A model generated the notes under the pieces. The model was given only the letters and a program-made list of their open reading frames with translations. It was not told where the DNA came from and made no database searches. A stretch of DNA of 64,000 nucleotides, taken from an uncultured Clostridia bacterium (GTDB lineage: Bacteria; Bacillota; Clostridia; Christensenellales; CAG-917). Positions within the stretch are counted from its first letter, which is position 1. Each line of letters starts with the position of its first letter. A program made the position numbers and the translations under genes. Positions 4,028 to 64,000 of the stretch are shown one piece after another. The DNA is taken from the NCBI GenBank assembly GCA_944363035.1, contig CALVTS010000001.1:691-64690 (forward strand), in the 5' to 3' direction.

Positions 4028-4816
4028 TTATTTCGCGGTGGGCATAGCCATCCCGCACGCGGCGATGATACGCTCGAAGTTCTTCTTCCTTGTGTATCTC
4101 GTGACATAGAACAGATCCACGATGTTCCAGATCGTGGCGGTGAGAATGCCGAAGAGCCACTTGCAGACCCCGAGCGCGACATATCCAGCGTAAATGCGGT
4201 CGATGCCCGTGAGATAAAATAAGAACGCGCACACCGTCGCGCAACGGGGAGAACGCAGAGTCACGTTGAGCGCGGCGCGCGCCATGTCGATGGGCACAGT
4301 CATTATGGTCTGCTCCAACACGCGGTAGTCCTTGGGATTGCACCACGGGGCGAGCGTCGCCACGATGGCGCTCCTTTCGGCGTACTCGGCGACGGTGTTC
4401 ACGCCTGCCGAGGGACCCGCGGGCTGAGGTCTGTACATCCCCTGGGGTTGCGCCATGGGCTGAGGAGCCATGGGCGCGTACGCCTGCTGTTGAGGTTGCT
4501 GAGGCACGGGAGCATACGCCTGTTGCTGAGGCACGGGAGCATATGCCTGTTGCTGAGGCGCGGGCGCATATGCCTGCTGTTGGGGTTGAGGCGCGGGCTG
4601 GGGAACGTGCTGTGCCGCAGGTTGAGGCTGAGGCACGGGCTGGGGAACGTGCTGTGCCGCAGGTTGAGGCTGAGGCGCGGGTTGCGGCGCCTTGACGGGC
4701 GCGGGCGCGGCAGGGGCAAAACTGCACACCGTCCCGCACTTGGGACACACCGCACGCGTTGCGGAATCTTCTACGGCGGCGACTGCTCCGCACTTGTAAC
4801 ACTTGAATTTCTTCAT
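4028..4816 (-). CDS. Zinc-ribbon / PQ-rich linker / TM2-domain membrane protein
   Basis: 262-aa ORF. The N-terminus MKKFKCYKCG..CPKCG is a zinc ribbon. The low-complexity linker contains QQQAYAP x4 and PQPQPAAQHVPQPx x2. The C-terminal motif GIDRIYAGYVALGVCKWLFGILTATIWNIVDLFYV is TM2-like. The gene ends 20 nt upstream of the giant ORF on the same strand. Confidence 0.8.
   Translation of the reverse strand: MKKFKCYKCGAVAAVEDSATRAVCPKCGTVCSFAPAAPAPVKAPQPAPQPQPAAQHVPQPVPQPQPAAQHVPQPAPQPQQQAYAPAPQQQAYAPVPQQQAYAPVPQQPQQQAYAPMAPQPMAQPQGMYRPQPAGPSAGVNTVAEYAERSAIVATLAPWCNPKDYRVLEQTIMTVPIDMARAALNVTLRSPRCATVCAFLFYLTGIDRIYAGYVALGVCKWLFGILTATIWNIVDLFYVTRYTRKKNFERIIAACGMAMPTAK
4478..4680. repeat. In-frame coding tandem repeats inside the TM2 gene: a 27-bp unit about 3.5x, then a 42-bp unit 2x
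   Basis: The unit gcctgttgctgaggcacgggagcata(c/t) is repeated from about 4478 to 4585. The unit gggctggggaacgtgctgtgccgcaggttgaggctgaggc occurs at 4595 and 4637 (period 42 bp = 14 aa). Confidence 0.8.
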
Positions 4817-6305: not shown

Positions 6306-7349
6306 TCATTCCTCCTCTGCGGGAGCGGGCGTGTAGCCCTTTTTCAGGCACTTGAAATGCTCAAAGCGGAAGATCACCGCTTCCCTTGCGAACATCATGC
6401 ACACAAAGGCTATCGTGCCGCCCATGAGCACGTCGGAGAAGAAGTGCGCGCCCACCACTATGCGGCTGATCGCGACCAGTCCCGTGAACGCCACGGGGAA
6501 TATCCAGCACAGAGCTCTCAGCCCTTTGTTTTTGGTCCCGAGCACGTCGGGGAGCATAATGAGCGCGTATGTCATGCCCGCCGCGCAGGTGTGCCCAGAG
6601 GGGAAGGACTTGAAAGCGTCCGACACACCGTACATCTCCTTGAACATATCCGACCACTCCTCGGGCTGTCCGCCTCGGGATTCATACCAATTCTGGAAAT
6701 TCGCGGTGAATCCGCCGAGCTCTTGCCCGAGCTCGCTGTTCATGGCGCGGTAACGCATCCTGCCGACGGGGTCCTTGATTATCATGATGAGCACGTTGGC
6801 TACGATCGCCATTATGACGAACGCGATGACGAACTTCATCAGCTTTTTCAGAGTCTCGTCCTTTATGCGCCAAAACGCGGCTATCGTCACCGCCGACGCC
6901 ATCAGCGCGCATATGACGGCTATAACCGTCATCACCGTCTCGACATACTCCGCACCTGTGAACTCCGTCCTCGCGTGCTCGGCGATGTAGCCGAACATAT
7001 CGTCAAAGAAGAACCAGTACGCCACCACGGATCCCGCAAGGAGCACCGCGCAGAATATCTCGCGCATGGGACGAAGTTTCAGCGTCCGCCACACGTACAG
7101 CATGAGCAGCACCACGCATATCGCCGCGATGACGTAGATGGGAGACGAACCGAATACCTCCAATGTCACGCCGAACACGTCGTGGGAAAGGTATTCCCCG
7201 TCCGCCAGGGCGTTTTCGGTGAGGATGTCGCTCACTTTCAGGTCGGTGAACGACGCCGCGATGAGCAGTCCCGCGAATATGACGACAAACAACGCCACGC
7301 CGAGGATCACCCTGCTCTTTTCGGAAAGTTTGGAAAAGATCATAATCAT
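6306..7349 (-). CDS. PAP2-family phosphatase, polytopic membrane protein
   Basis: PAP2 motifs KSFPSGHT and SRIVVGAHFFSDV are present. I moved the start from the track's 7520 to Met58 (MIMIFSKL) at 7349, which has gagaggg upstream and avoids running toward the tRNA gene. Confidence 0.8.
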   Translation of the reverse strand: MIMIFSKLSEKSRVILGVALFVVIFAGLLIAASFTDLKVSDILTENALADGEYLSHDVFGVTLEVFGSSPIYVIAAICVVLLMLYVWRTLKLRPMREIFCAVLLAGSVVAYWFFFDDMFGYIAEHARTEFTGAEYVETVMTVIAVICALMASAVTIAAFWRIKDETLKKLMKFVIAFVIMAIVANVLIMIIKDPVGRMRYRAMNSELGQELGGFTANFQNWYESRGGQPEEWSDMFKEMYGVSDAFKSFPSGHTCAAGMTYALIMLPDVLGTKNKGLRALCWIFPVAFTGLVAISRIVVGAHFFSDVLMGGTIAFVCMMFAREAVIFRFEHFKCLKKGYTPAPAEEE

Positions 7350-7546: not shown

Positions 7547-7621
7547 GCCCTCATGGTCAAGCGGTTAAGACGTCGCCCTCTCACGGCGGAATCTGGGGTT
7601 CGATTCCCCATGAGGGTACCA
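7547..7621 (+). tRNA. tRNA-Glu (anticodon CUC), CCA encoded
   Basis: Manual cloverleaf. Acceptor gccctca/tgagggt; D arm gtcaagcggttaagac; anticodon stem tcgcc/ggcgg with loop cu-CUC-ac; T arm tgggg-ttcgatt-cccca; discriminator A plus CCA. 75 nt. Confidence 0.88.
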
Positions 7622-7728
7622 ATAAAAAAACCACCGAACTAACGGTGGGTTTTTTATTTTTTCCCTCAAAAATGGGTACCAATAAAAAAACCACCGAACT
7701 AACGGTGGGTTTTTTATTTTTTCCCTCA
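7614..7728 (+). repeat. Exact 55-bp duplication (period 60 bp) of the tRNA 3' end (gggtacca) plus its intrinsic terminator
   Basis: gggtaccaataaaaaaaccaccgaactaacggtgggttttttattttttccctca occurs at 7614-7668 and again at 7674-7728. Each copy has the hairpin ccaccg-aactaa-cggtgg flanked by an A-run and a T-run. Confidence 0.9.
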
Positions 7729-7804: not shown

Positions 7805-9193
7805 TCATGACATATTGGCAAGGTTCGGCTGTGCAAAAGCGCCGAAAAGAATTGCTCTGAGGCCGGTTTGTATTATTCCTGTCTGGCATGCCGCGTTGCG
7901 TTCGGCAATAACGCGTGCGACGTTTTCCACCTCGGCGTTCACGGCGGAGGAGATATAGGGGGCGGGATTTGCGACACAACCGTCCTCGACGCGCAGACCT
8001 CTGCCGTGGATGGTTTCGCCCGAGGGCCAATATATGAGCGCGGTGGTGAGGTGGAGCACCTCCCCTGTCCAACGGTTGGTGAAATTCTGTTGCATACAGC
8101 CTTTGCCGTAGGAACTGCCGCTTTTGAACAAAGAGGGATCGGCGCCTATATCCTCCGCGTCGTAAGAGGAGAGGAAGATGTTGCGGCGTTCCGTGACGCC
8201 GTAGTCGATAAGACATCCTACCAGCGCTTCTGATGCGCTCGCGCTGTTGCCGTTCATCATGACGTAGACTTTTGCCGAAGATGGGATATATCTGCCCTCC
8301 TCCGCCCGATAGGCGTAATATTCCCCCTCATACGCTCTGCCGCCGTAACTCATGAACATCTTGCCCGCAGACCCCTCGAAGCAGGCGGCGATGTGGCAGG
8401 CGACGTCGATATATCCGCCGCCGTTGTTTCTTAGATCCAGAATGAGGGCATCGAGCCCGAGCTCGGTGAATCTCGCGCAGGCGAGAGCGAACTGCTCCGC
8501 CGCGTTGCCGTGGAACCCCGAGAGGGAGATATACGCCGTGCCCTCGGGAAGATAGGAGATGACGTCGTCGGGAGAGGAGGTCATCGTGAGCGCGCCACTC
8601 CCCGTAAAGCTCCATGCCTCGCTGTTTGTCGCCATCAGCACATAGCTCTGGTCGTACGCCGCCGTCCTGTACTCAAAAGTCTTTTCGCGCCCCTCTCTCT
8701 CAAAGACGAAACGCGCGATATTGCCCTCCGCAGTCTCCGAAAGCGCGGCTTCCAGACTTTCGTAGGGCGCATTGACGAAATCCAGCGTCTCGCCGTCGCG
8801 GGTCTCGGCGCGAAGCACTCTGTCCCCGACGCGAACGCCGGCCTCCCATGCGGGAGAATTGCCGTTGCACAAATACACGTACGCATACCCCGCGATGACG
8901 CCCACCGAAAAGCCCGCGTTCTGCATCTCGCCCGCGTTGGAGGCGAACACCTCGGCGTATTCCTCTGCGGTATAGTAGGCGGAAAACGCGTCGAGATATT
9001 CCTCCACTATCTCGTCGGCAGACATGGATGAAGCCCCGCTAAGGTCCACTTCCTCGTAATAATAGTCGCCGATGACAGAGATCGCCCACTCGGTGGAAGT
9101 CGGCGCGGAACAAGCCGTCAGCACGCACAAGAGGAGCGCCAACGCCGCCATGACAGATAATATCTTTCTCGAACGGATGAGTTTTTCCTTCAT
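7805..9193 (-). CDS. S41-family (C-terminal processing type) peptidase lipoprotein; its last ~27 codons are derived from a MITE fragment
   Basis: S41 motifs LRNNGGGYIDVA and NGNSASASEALVG are present. I moved the start to MKEKLIRSRKILSVMAALALLLCVLTAC (lipobox) at 9193. The C-terminus ACQTGIIQTGLRAILFGAFAQPNLANMS is the translated repeat, and the same peptide appears in the spurious ORF 13159..13362. Confidence 0.8.
   Translation of the reverse strand: MKEKLIRSRKILSVMAALALLLCVLTACSAPTSTEWAISVIGDYYYEEVDLSGASSMSADEIVEEYLDAFSAYYTAEEYAEVFASNAGEMQNAGFSVGVIAGYAYVYLCNGNSPAWEAGVRVGDRVLRAETRDGETLDFVNAPYESLEAALSETAEGNIARFVFEREGREKTFEYRTAAYDQSYVLMATNSEAWSFTGSGALTMTSSPDDVISYLPEGTAYISLSGFHGNAAEQFALACARFTELGLDALILDLRNNGGGYIDVACHIAACFEGSAGKMFMSYGGRAYEGEYYAYRAEEGRYIPSSAKVYVMMNGNSASASEALVGCLIDYGVTERRNIFLSSYDAEDIGADPSLFKSGSSYGKGCMQQNFTNRWTGEVLHLTTALIYWPSGETIHGRGLRVEDGCVANPAPYISSAVNAEVENVARVIAERNAACQTGIIQTGLRAILFGAFAQPNLANMS
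7811..7888 (+). mobile_element. Truncated MITE copy (right half only) forming the 3' end of the S41 peptidase CDS
   Basis: catattggcaaggttcggctgtgcaaaagcgccgaaaagaattgctctgaggccggtttgtattattcctgtctggca aligns with the right halves of the copies at 12479-12757 and 12903-13224. Confidence 0.8.
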
Positions 9194-28762: not shown

Positions 28763-28776
28763 GAAAAATTATTTTG

Positions 28777-28862: not shown

Positions 28863-29353
28863 TTGGCAAATCGCCGCCGTCGCGGAAATATACGAACCCT
28901 TTTTTATAAGCGTCAGAAAAGGCAAGCGTCCGAGGGGGTAAAGCGCGCCCGAGAGCAAGAGATTTTTGTTCGAGTTGCGGACGGCGGAGTCTCAAATCGG
29001 TGCAGAGATATTGGCATACTGCCGCCGCGAACATATATGAACCCTTTTTTTATAAGTGTCAGAAAGGCAAGCGCCCGGGAGGGTAAAGCACGCCCGAGAG
29101 CAAGAGATTTTCGGATGATGTTGCACGGGCGGAGGGTCGAATCGGCGCAGGGATATTACATACCGCCGCCGCGAACATATATGAACCCTCTTTTTATAAG
29201 TGTCATAAAGGCAAGCGCCCGAGAGGGTAAAGCGCGCCCGAGAGCAAGAGATTTTGTTCGAGTTGCGGACGGCGGAGGGTCGAATCGGCGCAGGGATATT
29301 ACATACCGCCGCCGAGGATATATACGAATCCCTTTTTATAACTGTCAGAAAAG
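28863..29353. repeat. Tandem array of a ~144-bp unit (about 3.4 copies, periods 148/144/143 bp)
   Basis: The reference word ccgccg(c/t)(c)g..atat(a/g)(t/c)gaaccc occurs at 28874, 29022, 29166 and 29309. Units alternate between two internal variants, gttcgagttgcggacggcgga and cggatgatgttgcacgggcgga. Confidence 0.85.
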
Positions 29354-29518
29354 GCAAGCGCCCGGGAGGGTAAAAATACGCCCGAGAGCAAGAGATTTTC
29401 GGATGATTTCGGAGGATAGCTCCGCCGCTAATAGTATACATATTAGCAAGGAGCTATCCTTTGAAAGCGCCGAAAAGAATTGCTCTCGGGCGTGTTTGTT
29501 ACCCTCTCGGGCGCTTGC
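29354..29518. repeat. 165-bp near-perfect long hairpin with the 21-nt core at its apex, starting 2 nt after the dnaB stop
   Basis: The left arm gcaagcgcccgggagggtaaaaatacgcccgagagcaa pairs with the right arm ttgctctcgggcgtgtttgttaccctctcgggcgcttgc. The inner stem is ggatagctcc/ggagctatcc. The apex aatagtatacatattagcaag lies at 29430-29450. On the minus strand the hairpin is followed by ttttctg. Confidence 0.85.
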
Positions 29519-48219: not shown

Positions 48220-49086
48220 TTATCTGGACGCGGAGGTGAAGATGATGCCGTACGTCCCGGGACCGCAATGCGCTCCTATGACGGGACCCACGGGCTGGGT
48301 GATGAACTCCGCGTGAGGGGCTATCGCCTGCGCACGGGACTTCAATTCCTCCACAGCGGCGTCGTTGTCCGCGCCCACCACTACGACGGGCGCGCCGTCT
48401 ATCGCGCGGTAGTTGCTCTCAAACACGGAAAGGATATAGCTCATCGCCTTTTTGGAACCTTTCTGTTTGGTGCGCACGTCTATCTCGCCCTCCTTGTTGA
48501 CGCAAAGGACGGGTTTAAGTTGCAACACGCTGCCGATCGCCGCCTTCGCGGGAGAGAGCCTCCCTCCCCTGGCGAGATATTTGAGGTCGTCCACCGCAAA
48601 GAGCACCGCTACGTTTTGCACCAAAGTGTCGAGATAGGCGCAAGTAGCGTCGATGTCCCCTCCGTGCGCGTTGAAGTACTTCGCCGCCATATAAACCATA
48701 AGCCCCGCGCCCATGCAGATGTTGAGCGTGTCATAGCGGCGGTATTTGACGTCGGGATATTTGGCTTTGAGCTCCTTTATCGCAAGCTCGAGATAGCTGA
48801 AAGTGTTGGACATCTTGGAGGAGAACGCGATATAAAGGATGTCCTCGCCCGCCTTGAAATATGGCTCGAAGATCTCGATGTAAGTCTCGGGATTGAGCCC
48901 AGCCGTGCTCACGGAAGCGCCGGCGCGCATCTTATCGTAAAACGCCTTGAAATCCGTGTTCTCGCCGAGGTCGTAGAGCTTCTCCTCGCCGTCCACGGTG
49001 TAAGGCATGGGGATGACTTTGATGCCAAGCTCGCGCGCGGTGGTGTACCACAGCTCGCAATCGGTGTCACAGAACAAAACTGCCAT
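48220..49086 (-). CDS. DegV family fatty-acid-binding protein
   Basis: The start is MAVLFCDTDCELW. The motif VSTAGLNP and the DegV length and pattern fit. Confidence 0.8.
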   Translation of the reverse strand: MAVLFCDTDCELWYTTARELGIKVIPMPYTVDGEEKLYDLGENTDFKAFYDKMRAGASVSTAGLNPETYIEIFEPYFKAGEDILYIAFSSKMSNTFSYLELAIKELKAKYPDVKYRRYDTLNICMGAGLMVYMAAKYFNAHGGDIDATCAYLDTLVQNVAVLFAVDDLKYLARGGRLSPAKAAIGSVLQLKPVLCVNKEGEIDVRTKQKGSKKAMSYILSVFESNYRAIDGAPVVVVGADNDAAVEELKSRAQAIAPHAEFITQPVGPVIGAHCGPGTYGIIFTSASR

Positions 49087-49229
49087 TTTCTTCTCCGGTA
49101 ACGCGGCTATGCCGCTTGATGAGCAGGAAAACCCGCCATGAATCATTCTAATATACGAAACGTGTCATGTCAAGAATGGCGGAAAATAAACCCGCGCTTC
49201 AGGTGAACATAGGGACGTAGAGTTCAAGC

Positions 49230-49305
49230 CATGCTCAGAATGAGTGTGCGTGGGAGTCAAACACGTCTCCGAATAAGTGTGCGGCGTGTTCGAAGTAATT
49301 TAAAT
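49230..49305 (-). repeat. Two degenerate 32-33 nt units (family D), inverted orientation
   Basis: cagaatgagtgtgcgtgggagtcaaacacgtct and ccgaataagtgtgcggcgtgttcgaag are reverse complements of the cccacgNNNNctcattcgg...gtttgaa units at 62528-62690. Confidence 0.7.
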
Positions 49306-49659
49306 GGGGGGAGCGTCCCCTGACATGGTAATATTGTACCCCCTCCTCCCCTTCGGGACTCCTCCCCCACTCGGAATAGAGGACTGTCCTCCTAAAATGC
49401 GGGATATACTTTTTCATAAAGGCGCGAACTGCGCCTTTATGAAAACACCTCTTGAAAAAGGTTTGAGTCTCGCACTTGCATAATCAAGCGGATACAAGTA
49501 CCCACTTAACGGCGCTCGCGGGGCGAGGAGGGCGACTCGACGCGCACCGAGCCCGTGTCTACTTAATAGCCGTCTGGCTTGCGAGATCGCAGATACGCGC
49601 CGCGACTTGCAAGAGCGGGCGCAAACGCCCGCTGTGCAAGTTTGAGTGAGCGGCGCGTG
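49306..49659 (+). repeat. Family X element, copy A (354 bp, non-coding, hairpin-rich)
   Basis: It aligns end to end with 49738-50090 and 63068-63422. See the findings. Confidence 0.85.
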
Positions 49660-49737
49660 GTTTCGTCTTCGAATGAGAGATGCGAGGTTCAGGCTCCACT
49701 CCAAATAAGTTCACGTGGGAGTCAGGCTAATTCAATT
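49660..49737 (-). repeat. Family D units between the X copies
   Basis: tcttcgaatgagagatgcgaggttcaggc and tccactccaaataagttcacgtgggagtcaggc. Confidence 0.65.
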
Positions 49738-50090
49738 GGGGTTTACGCCCCCTAACATGGAAGTATTGCACCCCCTCCTCCCCTTCGGGACTCCTCCCCC
49801 ACTCGGAATAGAGTTCATTCCTCCTAAAATGCGGGATATGCTTTTTCATAAAGGCGCGAACTGCGCCTTTATGAAAACACCTCTTGAAAAAGTTTGAGTC
49901 TCGCACTCACATAATCAAGCGGATACCAGTATAGACTTAACGTCGCTCGCGGGGCGAGGAGGGCGACTCGACGCGCACCGAGCCCGTGTCTACTTAATAG
50001 CCGTCTGGCTTGCGAGATCGCAGATACGCGCCGCGACTTGCAAGAGCGGGCGCAAACGCCCGCTGTGCAAGTTTGGGTGAGCGGCGCGTG
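49738..50090 (+). repeat. Family X element, copy B (353 bp)
   Basis: It lies 432 bp downstream of copy A. It contains the invariant hairpin tttcataaaggcgc-gaact-gcgcctttatgaaa at 49844-49876. Confidence 0.85.
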
Positions 50091-50194
50091 AGACCGTCTC
50101 CGAATAGGTATAGGTGGGAGTCAGGCTCCACTCTGAATGAGTGTACGTGGAATTCAAACACGCTCCGAATAAGTATACGTGGGGTTCAGGCACA
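50091..50194 (-). repeat. Three to four family D units
   Basis: gtctccgaataggtataggtgggagtcaggc, tccactctgaatgagtgtacgtggaattcaaacacg and ctccgaataagtatacgtggggttcaggc. Confidence 0.65.
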
Positions 50195-50725
50195 GTCACC
50201 CAGGTGACGGGCAAAGCGGGTGAGGAATGTGTTTCGGGCGAGGAGATTTGCGTTTGGGCAAGAAACTAAAAGAGTGACGTGCAAAGCGGGTGAGGAGTCG
50301 CCTGCGGGAGTTCCCTCCCGCAGGTGCTTGCAGTTTTGAACAGCCGATTTTTGTCTGAGCGCGAAAGCGCGCGCAGGCAATAGTATACATATTGGCAAGC
50401 GCGCTGACAAAGCTCAGGCGGAAATACATTAAACCCAAACTTGAAATACACCGTCACCCAGGTGACGGGCAAAGCGGGTGAGGAATGTGTTTCGGGCGAG
50501 GAGATTTGCGTTTGGGCAAGAAACTAAAAGAGTGACGTGCAAAGCGGGTGAGGAGTCGCCTGCGGGAGTTCCCTCCCGCAGGTGCTTGCAGTTTTGAACA
50601 GCCGATTTTTGTCTGAGCGCGAAAGCGCGCGCAGGCAATAGTATACATATTGGCAAGCGCGCTGACAAAGCTCAGGCGGAAATCGGCAGTTCAAAACCGA
50701 CTCCAAACCCGCTTTGCACGTCACC
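50195..50725. repeat. Family C element: a 231-bp segment perfectly duplicated at a 258-bp period, bounded by inverted termini GGTGACG(G/T)GCAAAGCGGGT. The right terminus overlaps the mrr stop codon.
   Basis: 50195-50425 equals 50453-50683 with no difference that I can see, and the track ORFs 50186..50410 and 50429..50668 give identical peptides. Internal hairpins include gtcacc-cag-gtgac and cctgcgggag-ttcc-ctcccgcagg. The 21-nt cores lie at 50379-50399 and 50637-50657. The right terminus ccaaacccgctttgcacgtcacc lies at 50703-50725. Confidence 0.85.
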
Positions 50726-51635
50726 CCAAAAACAACTCGTCGTCGATGTGCCAAACGCCGTCCGAGGAGCGCACGCCCACTTCGTTGGCGAACATCATGT
50801 CGAGGAGCGTGGTGCAATCGATGAGGAGGAGTTCGGCGCGTTTTGCGGCGAAGGTCCTGGTCTCGCGGTGGAAACGGGAGTTGGTGATGAGGATGCCTTT
50901 GGTCGCGCCCCATGCGACCATGACGCCCAGAAACTCGCGCACCACTTTGACTGAGACATAAGCCTTTTCGTTGAGCTTGGTCTTGGACTGGAAAAAGATG
51001 AGTTCCTTGAAACCGGCGGGGTCTTCGATATAGAGTTTGCCGTCGATGCCGTTGTCATCGGGACCTGCGGTGAGCTCGTTGCGCTTGACGGTGCTGCCGT
51101 AGACGGCGAGGAGGAGCTTCATGCTGAGCTCCTCAAAGAATTCTCCGCCCGCCTCGCTTATCGCCCGCGAAAGGGAACGGCGGAGGGCGGCGAGATATTT
51201 GTCCTTCTGAAGCTTGCCCGCCTTGTATTCCTGAAATTTTTTGTCCGCGCTCTCCAAGGTGCGCCCGAGGGGGGAATCGGGATACTTGGGGACTTTTGCG
51301 GCGCGTTCGGCGGCGCGTTTGCGCTGGGCGCGGCGGCGTTGCGTCCTGGTGAGCCCGCTCTTTTGTTCCTGCACGGGTTTCGGAGGCGCAAGCCTGCCGT
51401 CCTCGGTGGTGACGAGGCTCCCCGCCGCCAACATCTCGTTGAGCACCACGCCCGTGAGACTTTTCAGCTTGGTGTTGAGGGACTCGCAACTGCGGTCCTT
51501 GAGCTCCGCCGCGGAATATCCGTAGCGGGTGAGCGAACGCTCGATGAGGAGCTTGCGCTCGGTGCCTTCTTTATCCAGCACGGCTTTTACCGCGCTCTCT
51601 ATCTCCTGTTTGGAGGGAAAATCTCTCTTTGCCAT
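50721..51635 (-). CDS. Mrr-like type IV restriction endonuclease (Mrr_N winged-helix plus Mrr_cat PD-(D/E)xK domain)
   Basis: 304 aa. The N-terminus is Mrr_N-like (KQEIESAVKAVLDKEG..SLTRYGYSAAEL...SLTGVVLNEMLAAGSLV), followed by a basic linker. The C-terminal part reads FEELSMKLL..GPDDNGIDG..IFFQSKTK..VVREFLGVM..ATKGILITNSRF. Confidence 0.7.
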   Translation of the reverse strand: MAKRDFPSKQEIESAVKAVLDKEGTERKLLIERSLTRYGYSAAELKDRSCESLNTKLKSLTGVVLNEMLAAGSLVTTEDGRLAPPKPVQEQKSGLTRTQRRRAQRKRAAERAAKVPKYPDSPLGRTLESADKKFQEYKAGKLQKDKYLAALRRSLSRAISEAGGEFFEELSMKLLLAVYGSTVKRNELTAGPDDNGIDGKLYIEDPAGFKELIFFQSKTKLNEKAYVSVKVVREFLGVMVAWGATKGILITNSRFHRETRTFAAKRAELLLIDCTTLLDMMFANEVGVRSSDGVWHIDDELFLG

Positions 51636-58670: not shown

Positions 58671-58795
58671 AAGAGCCCTCCGAATGAAAAAAGTCGGCAG
58701 ACAAAAGTCTCCGACACTCCGCCCCGCGATGCGGGAAAACTCTCTGTGACGACCACTTGGCAGGACCGGTGGTGAAAGGAAACCTTTGCTTGCTC
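58671..58795 (-). promoter_or_regulatory. infC-rpmI-rplT leader with an intrinsic terminator just before the RBS (L20-leader-type attenuator candidate)
   Basis: The ~120-nt leader lies downstream of the predicted promoter. The hairpin gtcggagac-tttt-gtctgccgac plus tttttt (plus-strand 58686-58715) ends about 10 nt before the infC RBS. Confidence 0.45.
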
Positions 58796-58799
58796 TCAC

Positions 58800-58828
58800 A
58801 CTATATCAGCCCCTCCCCTCTGTGTCAA
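58800..58828 (-). promoter_or_regulatory. Sigma-70/SigA-type promoter of the infC operon
   Basis: The minus strand reads TTGACA, a 17-nt spacer, then TATAGT. Confidence 0.6.
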
Positions 58829-58971
58829 GCGATTTCGCCCCTCAAATAAAGGCGTTTTCGCCACGCGTCGAGAAGTATGCGGAGGATCGCGCGAAGAGAC
58901 CCCTCCTCCGCCCTCATCGGTAAATCCGTCACATATTCTCTACGTCGTGGAATATCTTCCCCGTCCCCGCC

Positions 58972-59010
58972 GTGAGAAAGAACGGACGCTCCCCTTGAGG
59001 AGAGCGTCCG
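58972..59010 (-). terminator. Rho-independent terminator after thrS
   Basis: cggacgctc(t)cc-tcaa-gg(g)gagcgtccg followed by ttctttct on the minus strand. Confidence 0.7.
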
Positions 59011-59035
59011 CTTGCTTCATACCCGTGCGGGTATC

Positions 59036-60973
59036 TCACTTTCTTGCTTTGCTGTCTATCTCGGCACGCGCCATGGCGAGGAATTCCGCCGCGGTCATGA
59101 CTCCGAGGTCGCCCTCAGCGCGATGGCGCACCGCGACCACTCCGTCCTCCGCCTCCTTGTCGCCGATGACGAGGACGTAAGGCACCTTTTCAAGCTGTGC
59201 TTCGCGTATCTTTTTGCCCAATTTCTCACTGCGGACGTCCGCCTCGGCACGCAGTCCCGCGGCGACGAGCTCCTTCGCGACCGCCTTTGCCTCGGACGCG
59301 GTGCGGTCGGTGAGAGAGAGCACTCTTACCTGTTCGGGCGCGAGCCACATGGGGAATGCGCCGTTGTATTTCTCGATGAGCATCGCGAGAGTGCGCTCAT
59401 AGCACCCGATGGAACTGCGGTGTATGATGAGGGGACGCGCCTTTTCGCCGTTTTCGTCGATGTACATCATGTCGAAACGCTCCGCGAGGGCGAAGTCCAG
59501 CTGAACGGTGAACAGCGTGTCCTCCTTGCCGTGGACGTTGGTGCCCTGCACGTCGAGTTTGGGACCGTAGAACGCCGCCTCGCCCCACTCTTCGGTATAG
59601 TCGATGCCGAGGTCGTCGAGGATGGTCTTCATCGCGCCTTCACTGCGCTCCCAGTCCGCGGCGTCGCCGACATACTTGTCCGCATTCTTGGGATCCCAGC
59701 GGGAGAAACGATAGGTGACGTCATTTTCGAGGTCGAAGGTCTTCAACATGAATTTGATGAGATCCACCGCTCCCGCGAATTCATCCTCGAGCTGGTCGGG
59801 AGTGCACACGATGTGCCCGTCCGCGAGGGTGAACTGGCGTATGCGGGTGAGCCCGTGCATCTCGCCGCTGGCTTCCTTGCGGAACTCTATCGCCGTCTCT
59901 GCGTAACGGATGGGCAGATCGCGATAGGATTTCAGCCCGTTTTTGTAGATGGTGAATTGGAAAGGACAGGTCATGGGACGCAGACAGAGTATCTCGTCGT
60001 CCACATCCTCCTCGCCGATGTAGAACATCTTGTCCTTGTAATGATCCCAGTGCCCCGAGGTGATGAAGAGGTTGTTCTTGGACATTATGGGCGTCTTGGT
60101 GAGCAGATATCCGCGGCGCTGTTCCTCATCCTCGACAAAACGCTGCATGATCTGGATGATACGCGCGCCCTTGGGCATGATGAGGGGAAGCCCCTGCCCT
60201 ATGTTTTCGTCCGTCATGAAGATGCCGAGCTCTCTGCCCAGTTTGTTGTGATCCCGCTTTTTCGCCTCTTCGAGCTTGGCGAGATACTCGTCCATATCCG
60301 ACTTTTTGTCAAAGGCGGTGCCGTATATCCTGGTCAGCATCTTGTTTTTCTCGTTGCCGCGCCAGTACGCCCCCGTGAGCGAGGTCAGCTTGAAGCACTT
60401 CACCTTGCCCGTGGACGCGAGATGAGGACCCGCGCACAGATCGGTGAAATCCCCCTGGGTGTAAAAACTTATCTCCTCCCCCTCGGGGATGTCGGCAAGC
60501 AGTTCCATCTTGTAGCTCTGCTTGGACTTTTTGATGAGCTTTTCGGCGTCCTTGCGGGAAAGGGTGCTGCGCACAATGGGCATATCCGCCTTGATGATGC
60601 TCTTCATCTCGGACTCTATCTTTTCGAAATCCGCCTGAGTGATGGGGGTCTTGAAATCGAAGTCGTAGTAAAATCCGTCCTTGACAGCGGGACCTATGGC
60701 GAGCTGTACGGTGGGATAGATGTTCTTCACCGCCTGTGCCAGGATGTGCGAACAGGTGTGACGGTATGCCAGCCTGCCCTCCTCGTCCTTGAACGTGAAA
60801 ACTTCGAAGGAGCAATCGCCGTCGATGGTCTCGTTCATGGACACGAACCTGCCGTCCGCCTTCGCCACGAGCGCCGCGCGTGCGAGCCCTTCGCTGATGT
60901 GCTTGGTCACTTCGAGAGCGGTCAACCCGTTTTCGAGCTCCGTTTTGCTTCCGTCTTTGAGAGTGATGATCAT
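59036..60973 (-). CDS. thrS: Threonine--tRNA ligase
   Basis: 645 aa. It has a TGS domain N-terminus (MIITLKDGSKTELENG), HTCSHILAQA, class II motifs and an anticodon-binding C-terminus. Confidence 0.93.
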   Translation of the reverse strand: MIITLKDGSKTELENGLTALEVTKHISEGLARAALVAKADGRFVSMNETIDGDCSFEVFTFKDEEGRLAYRHTCSHILAQAVKNIYPTVQLAIGPAVKDGFYYDFDFKTPITQADFEKIESEMKSIIKADMPIVRSTLSRKDAEKLIKKSKQSYKMELLADIPEGEEISFYTQGDFTDLCAGPHLASTGKVKCFKLTSLTGAYWRGNEKNKMLTRIYGTAFDKKSDMDEYLAKLEEAKKRDHNKLGRELGIFMTDENIGQGLPLIMPKGARIIQIMQRFVEDEEQRRGYLLTKTPIMSKNNLFITSGHWDHYKDKMFYIGEEDVDDEILCLRPMTCPFQFTIYKNGLKSYRDLPIRYAETAIEFRKEASGEMHGLTRIRQFTLADGHIVCTPDQLEDEFAGAVDLIKFMLKTFDLENDVTYRFSRWDPKNADKYVGDAADWERSEGAMKTILDDLGIDYTEEWGEAAFYGPKLDVQGTNVHGKEDTLFTVQLDFALAERFDMMYIDENGEKARPLIIHRSSIGCYERTLAMLIEKYNGAFPMWLAPEQVRVLSLTDRTASEAKAVAKELVAAGLRAEADVRSEKLGKKIREAQLEKVPYVLVIGDKEAEDGVVAVRHRAEGDLGVMTAAEFLAMARAEIDSKARK

Positions 60974-62527: not shown

Positions 62528-62690
62528 CCCACGCACACTCATTCGGAGGGTTCTTGAACTCCCACGCACGCTCATTCAGGGTGTGTTTGAATCCCACGTA
62601 TACTTATTCGGGGTGTGTTTGAACTTTACGTTTCTTCTTCGGAGCGTCCTTGAACACGACGTGCACTTATTCGGAGTGGAGCCGCCTAGC
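62528..62690 (+). repeat. Five head-to-tail degenerate 32-33 nt units (family D)
   Basis: Units start at 62528, 62561, 62593, 62626 and 62659. The pattern is cccacg-N5-ct(c/t)attc(g/a)g(g/a)g-N-gt(g/t)tttgaa(c/t)t, with no unique spacers. Confidence 0.8.
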
Positions 62691-62975
62691 CAAACTTGCA
62701 CAGGGCGTAGCCCTCTTGCAAGTCGGCGGCGACGAAGTGAGTGCCGAGGGCGAGACGAAAAGTGCGTCGGCAATGCGCCATTCTCTTCGCGAAGCGGGCG
62801 CATTGCAAGCGGCATAACATGGCGGCGCCGCAGAGGCGCCGTCCTCGGTAGCCCTCATGCCCGAGCGCCGAAGGTTTCCCCCAAAATGGTGGGTTCCCTT
62901 TTAAGGGGGAACGATTTTGGGGGAAACCCGCAGGAAGGGGGCAAAAATATTTCCCTGTCGCGGGAACGTAACCCC
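62690..62975 (-). repeat. Diverged, inverted relative of the family X element (conserved termini, different hairpin-rich interior)
   Basis: Its reverse complement starts ggggttacgttccc and ends acttgcaagagggc-tac-gccctgtgcaagtttgg. The interior has its own strong hairpins, for example ggtttcccccaaaat...attttgggggaaacc (15 bp) and gcaatgcgcc...ggcgcattgc. Confidence 0.7.
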
Positions 62976-63067
62976 TCAAATTAAATTAGACTGGGCACGC
63001 CGCACACTTATTCGTCGTGTTCGGGGACGCTCTGAATAAGTTCACGTCGTATTCAGGCTGGTTTAAT

Positions 63068-63422
63068 GGGGTATACGTCCCCTAACATGGGAGTATTGTA
63101 CCCCCTCCTCCCCTTCGGGACTCCTCCCCCACTCGGAATAGAGAACTGTCCTCCTAAAATGCGGGACTTACTTTTTCATAAAGGCGCGAACTGCGCCTTT
63201 ATGAAAACACCTCTTGAAAAAGGTTTAAGTCTCGCACTTGCATAATCAAGCGGATACCAGTATAGACTGAACGTCGCTCGCGGGGCGAGGAGGGCGACTC
63301 GACGCGCACCGAGCCCGTGTCTACTTAATTTCTCGTCTAGCTTGCGAGGTCGCAGATACGCGCCGCGACTTGCAAGAGCGGGCGTAAACGCCCGCTGTGC
63401 AAGTTTGGCTGAGCGGCGCGTG
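63068..63422 (+). repeat. Family X element, copy C
   Basis: It is collinear with copies A and B, at an offset of 13332 bp from copy B at the 3' end. Substitutions are scattered (for example tacttaatttctcgtctagcttgcgaggtcgc against tacttaatagccgtctggcttgcgagatcgc). Confidence 0.85.
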
Positions 63423-63459
63423 AGACCGTCTTCGAATGGGTTTTCATCGTGCTCAAACG

Positions 63460-63652
63460 CAGTTGTTCGCGAAATAGCGCGGGATAGAGGCGGAAACTGC
63501 GACCTATCCTACACTAAGATAAACACGGGTGAGACCGCGATATTTCGATGAAGTGCGCGAAAGCGCCCCTGTCGAGAGGCGGAGCTTACCAAATCGTAAG
63601 TGAGCATCTACGGCAGGGGCGCTGACAAAGCAATTCGCGAAATAGCGCGGTC
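63460..63652. repeat. Hairpin module related to family C but with a different apex, bounded by a direct repeat of ttcgcgaaatagcgcgg; it abuts the ABC-transporter stop codon
   Basis: ttcgcgaaatagcgcgg occurs at 63466-63482 and 63634-63650. The stem gcgaaa-gcgcccctg...caggggcgc-tgacaaagc (63563-63622) parallels gcgaaagcgcgcgc..gcgcgcgctgacaaagc of family C. Confidence 0.6.
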
Positions 63653-64000
63653 TCACTCCAGTTCGAAGGCGCCCGTATACAACTGATAATACCTCCCCTG
63701 TTTTGCGAGGAGCTCGTCGTGGGAGCCGCGTTCGATGATCTCGCCGTGCTCGAGGACGAGGATGACGTCGGCGTTGCGGACGGTGGAGAGACGGTGAGCG
63801 ATGATGAAGACCGTCCTGCCGTTCATGATCCTGTCCATACCCTTCTCGATGAGTTTTTCGGTGCGGGTGTCGATGGAACTCGTCGCCTCGTCCAGGATGA
63901 GGACGGGGGGATTGGCGACCGCCGCGCGCGCGATGGACAAAAGCTGACGCTGTCCCTGAGAGAGGTTGCTCCCGTCCCCCGAGATGACGGTGTCGTAGCC
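63653..64000 (-). CDS. ABC transporter ATP-binding domain (C-terminal part of an exporter-type permease/ATPase fusion); 5' end outside the window
   Basis: The frame is open to the window edge. It contains the signature and Walker B region [32 protein letters not shown], the H-loop IIAHRL, and a C-terminus ending in [10 protein letters not shown]. Confidence 0.85.

Follow-up and report, generated by a model that had tools for sequence, protein, structure and literature searches.

Lineage-specific families of modular, structured intergenic repeats in uncultured gut Clostridia

A 64,000-nt stretch from the genome of an uncultured Clostridia bacterium (contig CALVTS010000001.1; hereafter the window) carries three copies, A, B, and C, of a repeat of ~355–380 nt that we name X1, and one copy of a divergent sister family, X2. 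The three X1 copies lie where the original prediction, made from the letters of the DNA alone, had placed them, i.e. at 49300-49680 (A), 49733-50110 (B), and 63062-63442 (C), with A and B in tandem (431–432 nt start to start). We describe them on the strand complementary to the plus strand read by that prediction (the F strand), which is the minus strand of the window for all three. Repeat search, BLAST alignment, and nhmmer agree on these positions. Specifically, a profile hidden Markov model (HMM) built from the three copies matches 49300-49678, 49733-50110, and 63062-63442 (copy A: E = 6.6e-144, with the F-oriented match at 49316-49678), and the repeat search recovers both a 268-nt family (49300-49567, 49731-49998, and 63062-63329) and a 108-nt family corresponding to the 3' parts (starts at 49571, 50002, and 63334). 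The identity of roughly 90–95% estimated by eye also holds: over ~410 nt including flanks, A is 90.4% identical to B and 89.8% identical to C, and A and B reach 95.6% over the core at 49339-49659.

The genes around these copies are ordinary and include degV, apbE, an Mrr-like nuclease, a trypsin-like protease, a metallophosphoesterase, and an ABC ATPase; 36 of the 43 genes of the window lie on the minus strand, as does the F strand of A, B, and C. Between copy A and degV there is a near-consensus promoter (TTGACA-17-TAGAAT, 49173-49145), and degV thus probably has a promoter of its own downstream of the repeat. The degV open reading frame (ORF) is called from 49146, and an ATG near 49086, preceded by GGAGAAG, is the better start.

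The X2 copy, which the original prediction did not report, lies upstream of copy C on the opposite strand (62665-62995, F strand plus) and is supported by alignment and fold, by a pattern match to its terminal hairpin (62694-62722), and by a partial nhmmer match (62665-62761). It has in common with X1 this terminal hairpin (P1) with its flanks, the 5' units described below, and the order of pyrimidine tract, purine arm, and mirror arm, while the body of the element is different. Conserved relatives of X2 are present at five other loci (L071, L075, L028, L055, and L145).

Every copy in the window is embedded in head-to-tail, degenerate units of 31–33 nt (plus-strand core CTCCGAATAAG; F-strand core ..CTYATTCGGAG..), also absent from the original prediction, whose orientation relative to the element is fixed. 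Repeat families and unit spacing place one such array at 49215-49299 (minus strand), and further arrays occupy 49660-49732, 50091-50195, 62996-63061, and 63423-63460. The array 5' of X2 (62528-62664, plus strand; Tandem Repeats Finder, period 32, 3 copies) holds four to five units oriented relative to the element as in X1. Across the wider family, at least one unit core stands just 5' of P1 in 105 of 122 copies, with the same spacing of 31–33 nt, and between 0 and 4 cores fall within the 260 nt 5' of a copy. We considered these units as a ToxI-like type III toxin–antitoxin RNA or a CRISPR array and rejected both, as the units are head-to-tail, degenerate, and spacerless, and their neighbors are degV, an mrr-like gene, a metallophosphoesterase, and an ABC ATPase.

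Two other repeats adjoin the X copies. A 258-bp unit directly abuts the X array at 50191-50683 in a perfect tandem duplicate (99–100% identical), which could be a recent duplication or an assembly artifact. On the minus strand, each unit holds a promoter-like TTGTCA-17-TATACT (50668-50640 and 50410-50382), directed towards copies B and A, and an internal sub-repeat of ~100 nt (CCTCACCCGCTTTGC[A/C]CGTCAC). A family of long palindromes of ~135 nt (..ATTTCGATGAAGTGCGCGAAAGCGCCCCTG ... CAGGGGCGCTGACAAAG..CGAAAT..) occurs at 63520-63655 and often adjoins X copies in several species (e.g. L054 3700-3830, L057 ~930-1050 and ~1290-1345, L065, L029, and L018).

Read along the F strand, the element (310–380 nt) begins with one to five units, followed by ...TTCGGAGACGG, 4 variable nucleotides, and P1, a long three-part hairpin (49595-49658 in A, 50026-50089 in B, and 63358-63421 in C, minus strand) assigned from sequence and covariation. 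P1 consists of ACGCGCCGC, ACTTGCA, and an inner stem (GCGGGCG in copy A) with a CUUG or UUUG loop. The terminal hairpin had been predicted, and we count four occurrences in the window, where 0.02 would be expected. P1 is joined by a linker, in which AUUAAGUAG is conserved, to a domain that encloses three to four small hairpins; a pyrimidine tract, Y, and a purine arm, R, form the long-range helix that closes this domain. Y is UUCCUCC-G-CCCG or CUCCUC-G-CCCC, and R is GGGGGAGGAA or GGGGGAGGAG. In the window copies, Y is CCCUCCUCGCCCC (49520-49532, 49951-49963, and 63282-63294 in A, B, and C, minus strand). The original prediction had proposed a long-range CCUCC/GGAGG pairing here, and it is recovered as CCCTCCTCCCC with GGCGAGGAGGG (49341-49351 with 49522-49532, 170 nt apart, 91%). 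A short CCC-GAA-GGG hairpin lies 3' of R and is followed by a second purine arm, RH (AAGGAGGGGG or GAGGAGGGGG). In the window, the R arm GGGGGAGGAG, spacer hairpin UCCCGAAGGG, and RH arm GAGGAGGGGG together form a purine mirror repeat at 49339-49368 (A), 49771-49800 (B), and 63101-63130 (C), again on the minus strand. In some subfamilies, two more small hairpins follow RH, and a G4/C4 hairpin with copy-specific loops, noted earlier, is recovered in the alignment of the copies. The two ends of the element are unlike each other, with P1 at one and the purine module or the G4/C4 hairpin at the other.

A further hairpin had been singled out as an invariant 14-bp feature. A perfect hairpin is present in all three copies (49411-49445 in A, 49843-49877 in B, and 63173-63207 in C by inverted-repeat search, strand not assigned) and measures 15 bp in copy A (TTTTCATAAAGGCGC/GCGCCTTTATGAAAA), but it is not invariant: in a single subfamily only, one internal hairpin carries it at its tip as an insertion of 31 nt. 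We find this module only in the window copies, L032, and L041, and it is absent from 55 of 60 aligned copies, which have a short or different hairpin at the same site; for example, the L054 ortholog has the unrelated TTACCAAAATTTTGGTAA. Other small hairpin modules (GGGGTCCCCGCCGAAAG..TTTCGGTGGGG and ACCGAAGGTCCAGCGATTG..CAATCGCGTCG) sit at differing positions in different copies, and derivatives exist that consist of P1 only, of the purine module only, or of P1 joined straight to the 3' end. Because hairpin modules occupy differing positions and partial derivatives exist, we regard X as a mosaic. It has the features of an interspersed mosaic repeat of the BIME/BOX type, i.e. an intergenic location, ~116 near-full copies, a variable number of tandem units, and interchangeable modules. 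A split arrangement of left and right ends around an ORF was considered and rejected, the partial matches being pieces that contain P1, the purine module, or units alone, or else copies interrupted by internal insertions.

One hairpin module of ~35–45 nt (GGGGTCCCCGCCGAAA..TTTCGGTGGGG) looks like an independent small palindromic repeat. It is inserted at differing positions of X copies (L052:7310, L034:7663, L078, and L060) and also forms tandem arrays of its own (L083 ~6950-7200 and L088 ~560-650). In L089, it borders the stretch whose loss constitutes the internal deletion of the X copy in L088.

No reading frame is conserved among the copies, as the original prediction held, since the indels that separate them are not multiples of three. 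One metagenome gene caller does report a 60-aa ORF at the MKK(Y/H)IPHFRR site. We reject a small protein gene because this frame begins within the subfamily-specific inserted hairpin and is broken by the indels. The GGAGG tracts were likewise considered as ribosome-binding sites and set aside: in most copies no ORF follows them, and the purine arms of X2 have no GGAGG. Nor do the copies belong to a described RNA family. Against Rfam 15 at the gathering threshold, the whole window yields only a tRNA (7547-7618), and a search of 49150-50750 at E <= 10 yields five noise matches of 10–19 bits against thresholds of 38–49. The families without a match in cmscan include tmRNA, RNase P, SRP, group II intron, HEARO, IS605-orfB, OLE, GOLLD, ROOL, and raiA.

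What is conserved is structure. Compared with dinucleotide shuffles, the region folds with z scores of -6.2 (plus strand) and -8.25 (minus strand). We aligned 102 distinct copies with an HMM-based procedure that was not fitted to any structure and derived a consensus with RNAalifold. This consensus contains 76 pairs, with 92.2% of cells canonical and 22 pairs changed on both sides. Its covariation score is 0.163, compared with 0.030–0.067 when the 3' partners are slid by 1–3 columns, and the observed values are not attained in any of 300 column shuffles. Since the copies share ancestry, which shuffling does not take into account, the slide control is the fairer of the two, and it also supports the structure. 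Individual helices give the same result. For example, the middle stem of P1 (ACUUGCA/UGCAAGU) becomes GCGUUCA/UGAACGC in 28 copies and remains 100% paired; P1b is 100% paired, with compensatory changes at 39:75, 41:73, and 43:71; the P1 inner stem covaries across at least five sequence types; and the long-range Y/R helix covaries across the family. Three conserved stretches, AUUAAGUAG, CCGCUCGAUUAUGU, and CCCGCAUUUUAGGAGGAC, are predicted to be unpaired. The helices are thus compensatory beyond the level of the controls, on related copies, as expected of a structured RNA in general, and the fold is real and conserved by compensatory change. With no coding frame, no Rfam match, and covariation among many copies, the general view of an undescribed structured noncoding repeat is borne out.

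Which strand folds is less sharply defined. A first count of G.U against A.C pairs in the F-strand structure (653 vs 160) was discarded as circular, because the predicted structure of the opposite strand shows an equal excess. When only the 41 pairs predicted on both strands are considered, G.U still exceeds A.C (106 vs 61), with G.U ahead in 11 pairs and behind in 4. With RNA parameters, the F strand is more stable in 74 of 101 copies (mean -4.5 kcal/mol, P = 9e-7). The F strand also runs along the majority gene strand in 55 loci compared with 34, and in tandem gene contexts it runs along the genes in 27 compared with 12, counts that include the same site from several samples and are not independent. 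Taken together, the evidence favors, modestly but consistently, the strand opposite to the plus strand that had been described. The conspicuous tracts of the F strand are GGAGG-like, not CCUCC-like, and because the evidence modestly favors this strand, the earlier analogy with small RNAs that carry C-rich seeds is unlikely.

The tandem pair described originally is real, but it is not a local feature, as it belongs to a dispersed family of >100 copies. A scan of a species-representative genome collection with the terminal-hairpin pattern, leaving the inner stem free, returned 69 loci, of which 63 are real, all in metagenome-assembled genomes (MAGs) of uncultured Clostridia. At least five MAGs are involved: SI.A15 bin145 (about 30 copies), BRZ_BI bin75 (about 20), HGM11451 (about 11), Candidatus Limadaptatus stercoravium (7), and BRZ_MP bin75 (1). 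A search of metagenome contigs with a degenerate pattern recovered 66 loci; all or almost all are of human gut origin, and single contigs of up to 406 kb hold several copies. Over the collected sequence, nhmmer gives 188 matches, 116 of them near full length. Identity to copy A ranges from 68 to 90%, and subfamilies are common to different species. By contrast, blastn of plasmid and phage collections found no related sequence, and of four matches in a pattern scan of viral contigs the three examined (L008, L009, and L011) are unrelated coding sequence; a phage, plasmid, or viral origin was rejected on these grounds. None of six conserved 16–18-mers was found as a sequence string in the papers searched. 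We conclude with high confidence that this is a previously undescribed family of >100 copies, specific to a group of uncultured gut Clostridia.

All copies are intergenic, and 36 lie between convergent genes while only 7 lie between divergent ones. Two rounds of clustering, of 358 and then 747 ORFs called crudely across all loci, gave no recurrent protein family beside the copies apart from ABC ATPases and orthologs; a linked transposase, nuclease, or reverse transcriptase was not seen among these ORFs. Representative neighbors are proteins that we take to be housekeeping (P-type ATPase, TypA, AsnRS, and a sigma factor). An inverted-repeat search of copies A, C, and X2 detected internal hairpins and the long-range helix and no terminal inverted repeats.

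Comparisons between species reveal that individual copies are retained at orthologous sites where the genes are ~75% identical. In L054, one copy lies in the same degV/mrr spacer in which the window has two, and the flanking genes are 73–77% identical to those of the window. This copy is 78–79% identical to A and B and contains a block of ~55 nt that is fully unchanged, whereas the rest of the spacer is 65% identical, compared with ~56% for shuffled sequence. As read from these alignments, the pattern indicates purifying selection, or homogenization, acting on individual copies and not neutral decay. Copy number differs between species at such sites: besides the one copy against two in L054, L056 (MAG CASDRL01) has two tandem copies where the window has X2 and C. 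At two gene junctions (L065/L090 and L052/L085), a block of ~600 nt that includes terminator-like hairpins, units, and X is matched by a short unrelated spacer in the other species. Within one species, some samples have an internal deletion in which the body of the element is lost and P1 is kept (L088/L089). These three pairs show block replacement or internal deletion, and neither a clean empty site nor a target-site duplication was found in them; L041, compared with the window as a possible empty site, loses synteny at that point. From the block replacement at two junctions and the P1-retaining deletion, turnover looks like duplication, deletion, and block replacement and not cut-and-paste transposition. 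A related species also has ~2.9 kb of extra DNA at an otherwise syntenic site (L057 860-3725 vs window 58793-59070). Two ORFs, one X copy, and a pair of long palindromes lie in this DNA, whereas the spacer of the window measures 277 nt, an instance of block-wise gain or loss.

The purine module at the 3' end follows a rule of its own. R and RH are exact mirror images and not inverted repeats, and no purine mirror repeat with arms of 9 nt or longer is present in the window outside the three X1 copies, or in any of 40 shuffles. Y, R, and RH change together across the family in three variants: UUCCUCC(G)CCC with GGGGGAGGAA and AAGGAGGGGG, CUCCUC(G)CCCC with GGGGGAGGAG and GAGGAGGGGG, and, in X2, UUUCCCCC with GGGGGAAA and AAGGGGG. 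In seven copies RH is AAGGUGGGGG, with its U exactly opposite an A-U pair of the Y-R helix. In class II purine-motif triplexes, e.g. the BoxC/PIT/TMECO motifs of E. coli, a pyrimidine tract, a purine tract, and a reverse-Hoogsteen strand follow each other and form G.G-C and A/T.A-T triplets (PMC4666352). The covariation of Y, R, and RH, as aligned, is that of the order and base code of such an intrastrand triplex on one strand. The distances are different: class II motifs have about 1–6 nt between tracts, and here Y and R are ~130 nt apart in X1 and ~45 nt apart in X2, with a spacer of 8–12 nt between R and RH. That the 3' domain is a selected three-stranded structure, with RH in the major groove of the Y-R helix and a class II triplex capping a multi-hairpin fold, seems to us rather doubtful. 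If it were true, either selection would act on folded single-stranded DNA or an R.R-Y triplex would for the first time be known from a natural RNA, and X would represent a large, complex, multicopy class of structured DNA or RNA and not a simple palindromic repeat. The three-way covariation offers a directly testable case of a selected triplex within a large fold, a question open since the BoxC/PIT motifs.

Given these observations, we describe the locus with high confidence as one of lineage-specific, modular, structured intergenic repeats, with sister families X1 and X2, and not as a protein gene, a known RNA family, or an autonomous transposon. As to what the repeats do, we favor, at a probability of roughly 0.4, a structured repeat of a BIME/BOX-like kind whose folded single strand acts in cis. 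A copy would be co-transcribed passively with the upstream gene, its transcript would fold into a compact, exonuclease-resistant block, and this block would insulate or protect transcript ends, as proposed for REP/BIME and BOX; the copies would multiply by duplication and recombination within the unit arrays, with no encoded transposase. We favor a co-transcribed fold because of the position of the copies, their orientation bias, and the energy asymmetry that is specific to RNA. This mode of action, with the fold as a barrier or insulator at transcript ends, is proposed by analogy and held with low to moderate confidence.

Several observations weigh against this interpretation. We found neither a promoter nor an intrinsic terminator that could convincingly be assigned to the element, and read-through would be limited at several loci by a strong terminator-like hairpin that separates the element from the upstream gene. 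The two strands fold equally well with DNA parameters, and the orientation bias is modest and drawn from nonindependent loci. Purine-motif triplexes are stated not to form in RNA (PMC4666352), and the triplex code of Y, R, and RH would, if the triplex is real, point to single-stranded DNA. Lastly, the function itself is assigned by analogy with REP/BIME and BOX.

The third of these points leads to the best-surviving alternative, i.e. that X acts as single-stranded DNA. Here the exposed F strand, for example on the lagging-strand template, would fold into hairpins and a class II intrastrand triplex, serving as a recognition site for an enzyme whose gene lies elsewhere, such as an HUH/RAYT-like or other recombinase, or as a non-B feature that pauses replication and promotes rearrangement. 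We consider this unlikely overall. In its favor, R and RH are perfect mirrors in all three variants, with a matching Y in class II order in each; the U opposite the A-U pair is allowed by the purine-motif code (PMC4666352); and mirror repeats cannot come from inversion or ordinary duplication. The majority gene strand, which F tends to follow, has the polarity of a lagging-strand template, the loci are prone to rearrangement (copy number differs at orthologous sites, and the body can be deleted with P1 kept), and terminator-like hairpins often precede the element. On the other side, the gap of 45–130 nt between Y and R compares with 3–6 nt in the described triplex motifs, the strand asymmetry obtained with RNA parameters is gone with DNA parameters, no HUH, RAYT, or recombinase gene was seen beside any copy, and the mirror may partly be a by-product of two GGAGG tracts, since GGAGG is its own mirror image.

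It is more improbable that the copies are genes for a multicopy trans-acting RNA, i.e. a scaffold or guide for a protein encoded elsewhere, as orphan HEARO/omega-RNAs or IS110 bridge RNAs are in relation to IscB, TnpB, and recombinases. The complex covarying fold of many helices with its conserved, predicted-unpaired stretches, the apparent purifying selection on single copies, the confinement of a multicopy element to one lineage, and two deletion derivatives (L093 and L102) that keep both P1 and the 3' purine module would all suit such an RNA, yet Rfam 15 gives no match even to its HEARO and IS605-orfB families, none of the ~116 copies adjoins an ORF for a nuclease, recombinase, or reverse transcriptase, no conserved promoter was found, and the flanks are semiconserved units and not variable, guide-like sequence. 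Both this possibility and the following one lack positive evidence. Decaying nonautonomous transposable elements resembling miniature inverted-repeat transposable elements (MITEs), whose structure would be left from past transposition with no host function, would explain a dispersed, multicopy family with subfamilies, whole blocks present or absent at the same gene junction (L065 vs L090 and L052 vs L085), and contigs that frequently break within copies, but we think them improbable, as no terminal inverted repeats, clean junction, target duplication, or autonomous partner was found, and as an orthologous copy at coding-like identity with an unchanged block, beside a spacer that is near random, fits neutral decay poorly.

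A cis-acting structured repeat therefore remains the interpretation that we favor, and because individual copies appear to be under purifying selection, the family probably does something for the cell. In a few model bacteria, interspersed structured repeats (REP/BIME, BOX, Correia, and bcr) have been studied well; for the uncultured Clostridia that predominate in gut metagenomes, to our knowledge, hardly any have been described. X fills a sizable share of the intergenic DNA in the genomes that carry it. It also breaks short-read assemblies: many contigs end inside copies, including contigs of the window locus from other samples, and in other samples of the same species that locus is identical. 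The aligned copies are a ready seed alignment for a new entry in Rfam or a Dfam-like database.

The intergenic DNA of this genome is unusually rich in repeats beyond X. Further families occur in the window at 7810, 12679, 13146, 29438, and 53201, and at 28776, 33375, and 53001; one, of ~80 nt, contains AATAGTATACATATTGGCAAG and GAATAATACGAACC..TTTTCGGCGCTTTTGC. At 28870-29400, a unit of 145 nt occurs in four tandem copies. After the tRNA at 7547-7618 (60.5 bits in Rfam), a terminator-like hairpin (GGGTACCAATAAAAAAACCACCGAACTAACGGTGGGTTTTTTATTTTTTCCCTCA) is present in two exact copies of 55 nt (7614-7668 and 7674-7728). Within a long minus-strand ORF, a 42-nt tandem repeat of 3 units (4579-4704) suggests a repetitive segment in the putative protein.

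Among known systems, the nearest kinds to X are BIME/REP, the BOX elements of Streptococcus pneumoniae, and the bcr repeats of the Bacillus cereus group (PMC3049150; PMC3184786). Also comparable are HEARO and omega-RNAs, which are likewise multicopy structured noncoding elements of ~300 nt with many copies that have no ORF; X differs in having no Rfam match and no adjoining IscB, TnpB, or TnpA ORF, and its flanks are repeat units and not guide-like unique sequence. IS200/IS605-type elements and RAYT-linked REP have similar subterminal hairpins at both ends and a Y1 (HUH) transposase in the genome; in X, the two ends carry unlike structures, and the flanks examined have no recurrent transposase-like neighbor. 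With the TMECO/BoxC/PIT motifs (PMC4666352), X has in common the order of pyrimidine, purine, and mirror purine tracts on one strand, a G/C-rich composition with interspersed A(T), and a multicopy, intergenic distribution at variable loci. TMECO, however, is a compact motif of ~35 nt with loops of 3–6 nt, whereas in X the pyrimidine tract lies 45–130 nt upstream of the purine arms with hairpins in between, and the predicted TMECO-like motif constitutes just the 3' domain of an element of far greater size.

The bcr repeats, which include groups that conserve structure (reviewed in PMC3184786), come from another lineage and have no sequence similarity to X, and bcr1-3 have terminal inverted repeats and target duplications that X does not. 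Both are nonetheless chromosomal repeats of Firmicutes, 100–400 nt in length, with a conserved predicted secondary structure, compensatory changes, and some members that are stable at orthologous sites. REP units of enterobacteria are palindromes of 20–40 nt linked to RAYT transposases, whereas X has ten times their length and nonpalindromic units, and no RAYT gene was seen in about 1.2 Mb of DNA flanking X copies. Like X, REP/BIME form intergenic mosaics of palindromic and nonpalindromic motifs, mostly at the 3' ends of genes, that are kept across species as a family and are often clustered. BOX, with its boxA-boxB(n)-boxC arrangement (PMC3049150), has no sequence similarity to X, is AT-richer, and has MITE-like inverted terminal modules, which X has not; X is larger (310–380 nt), its multi-hairpin domain is closed by a long-range helix, and it contains a purine mirror repeat. 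The two are nevertheless alike in being interspersed, intergenic, noncoding, and modular, with a short sub-unit in variable tandem number beside larger modules, a predicted stable RNA fold, and no encoded transposase.

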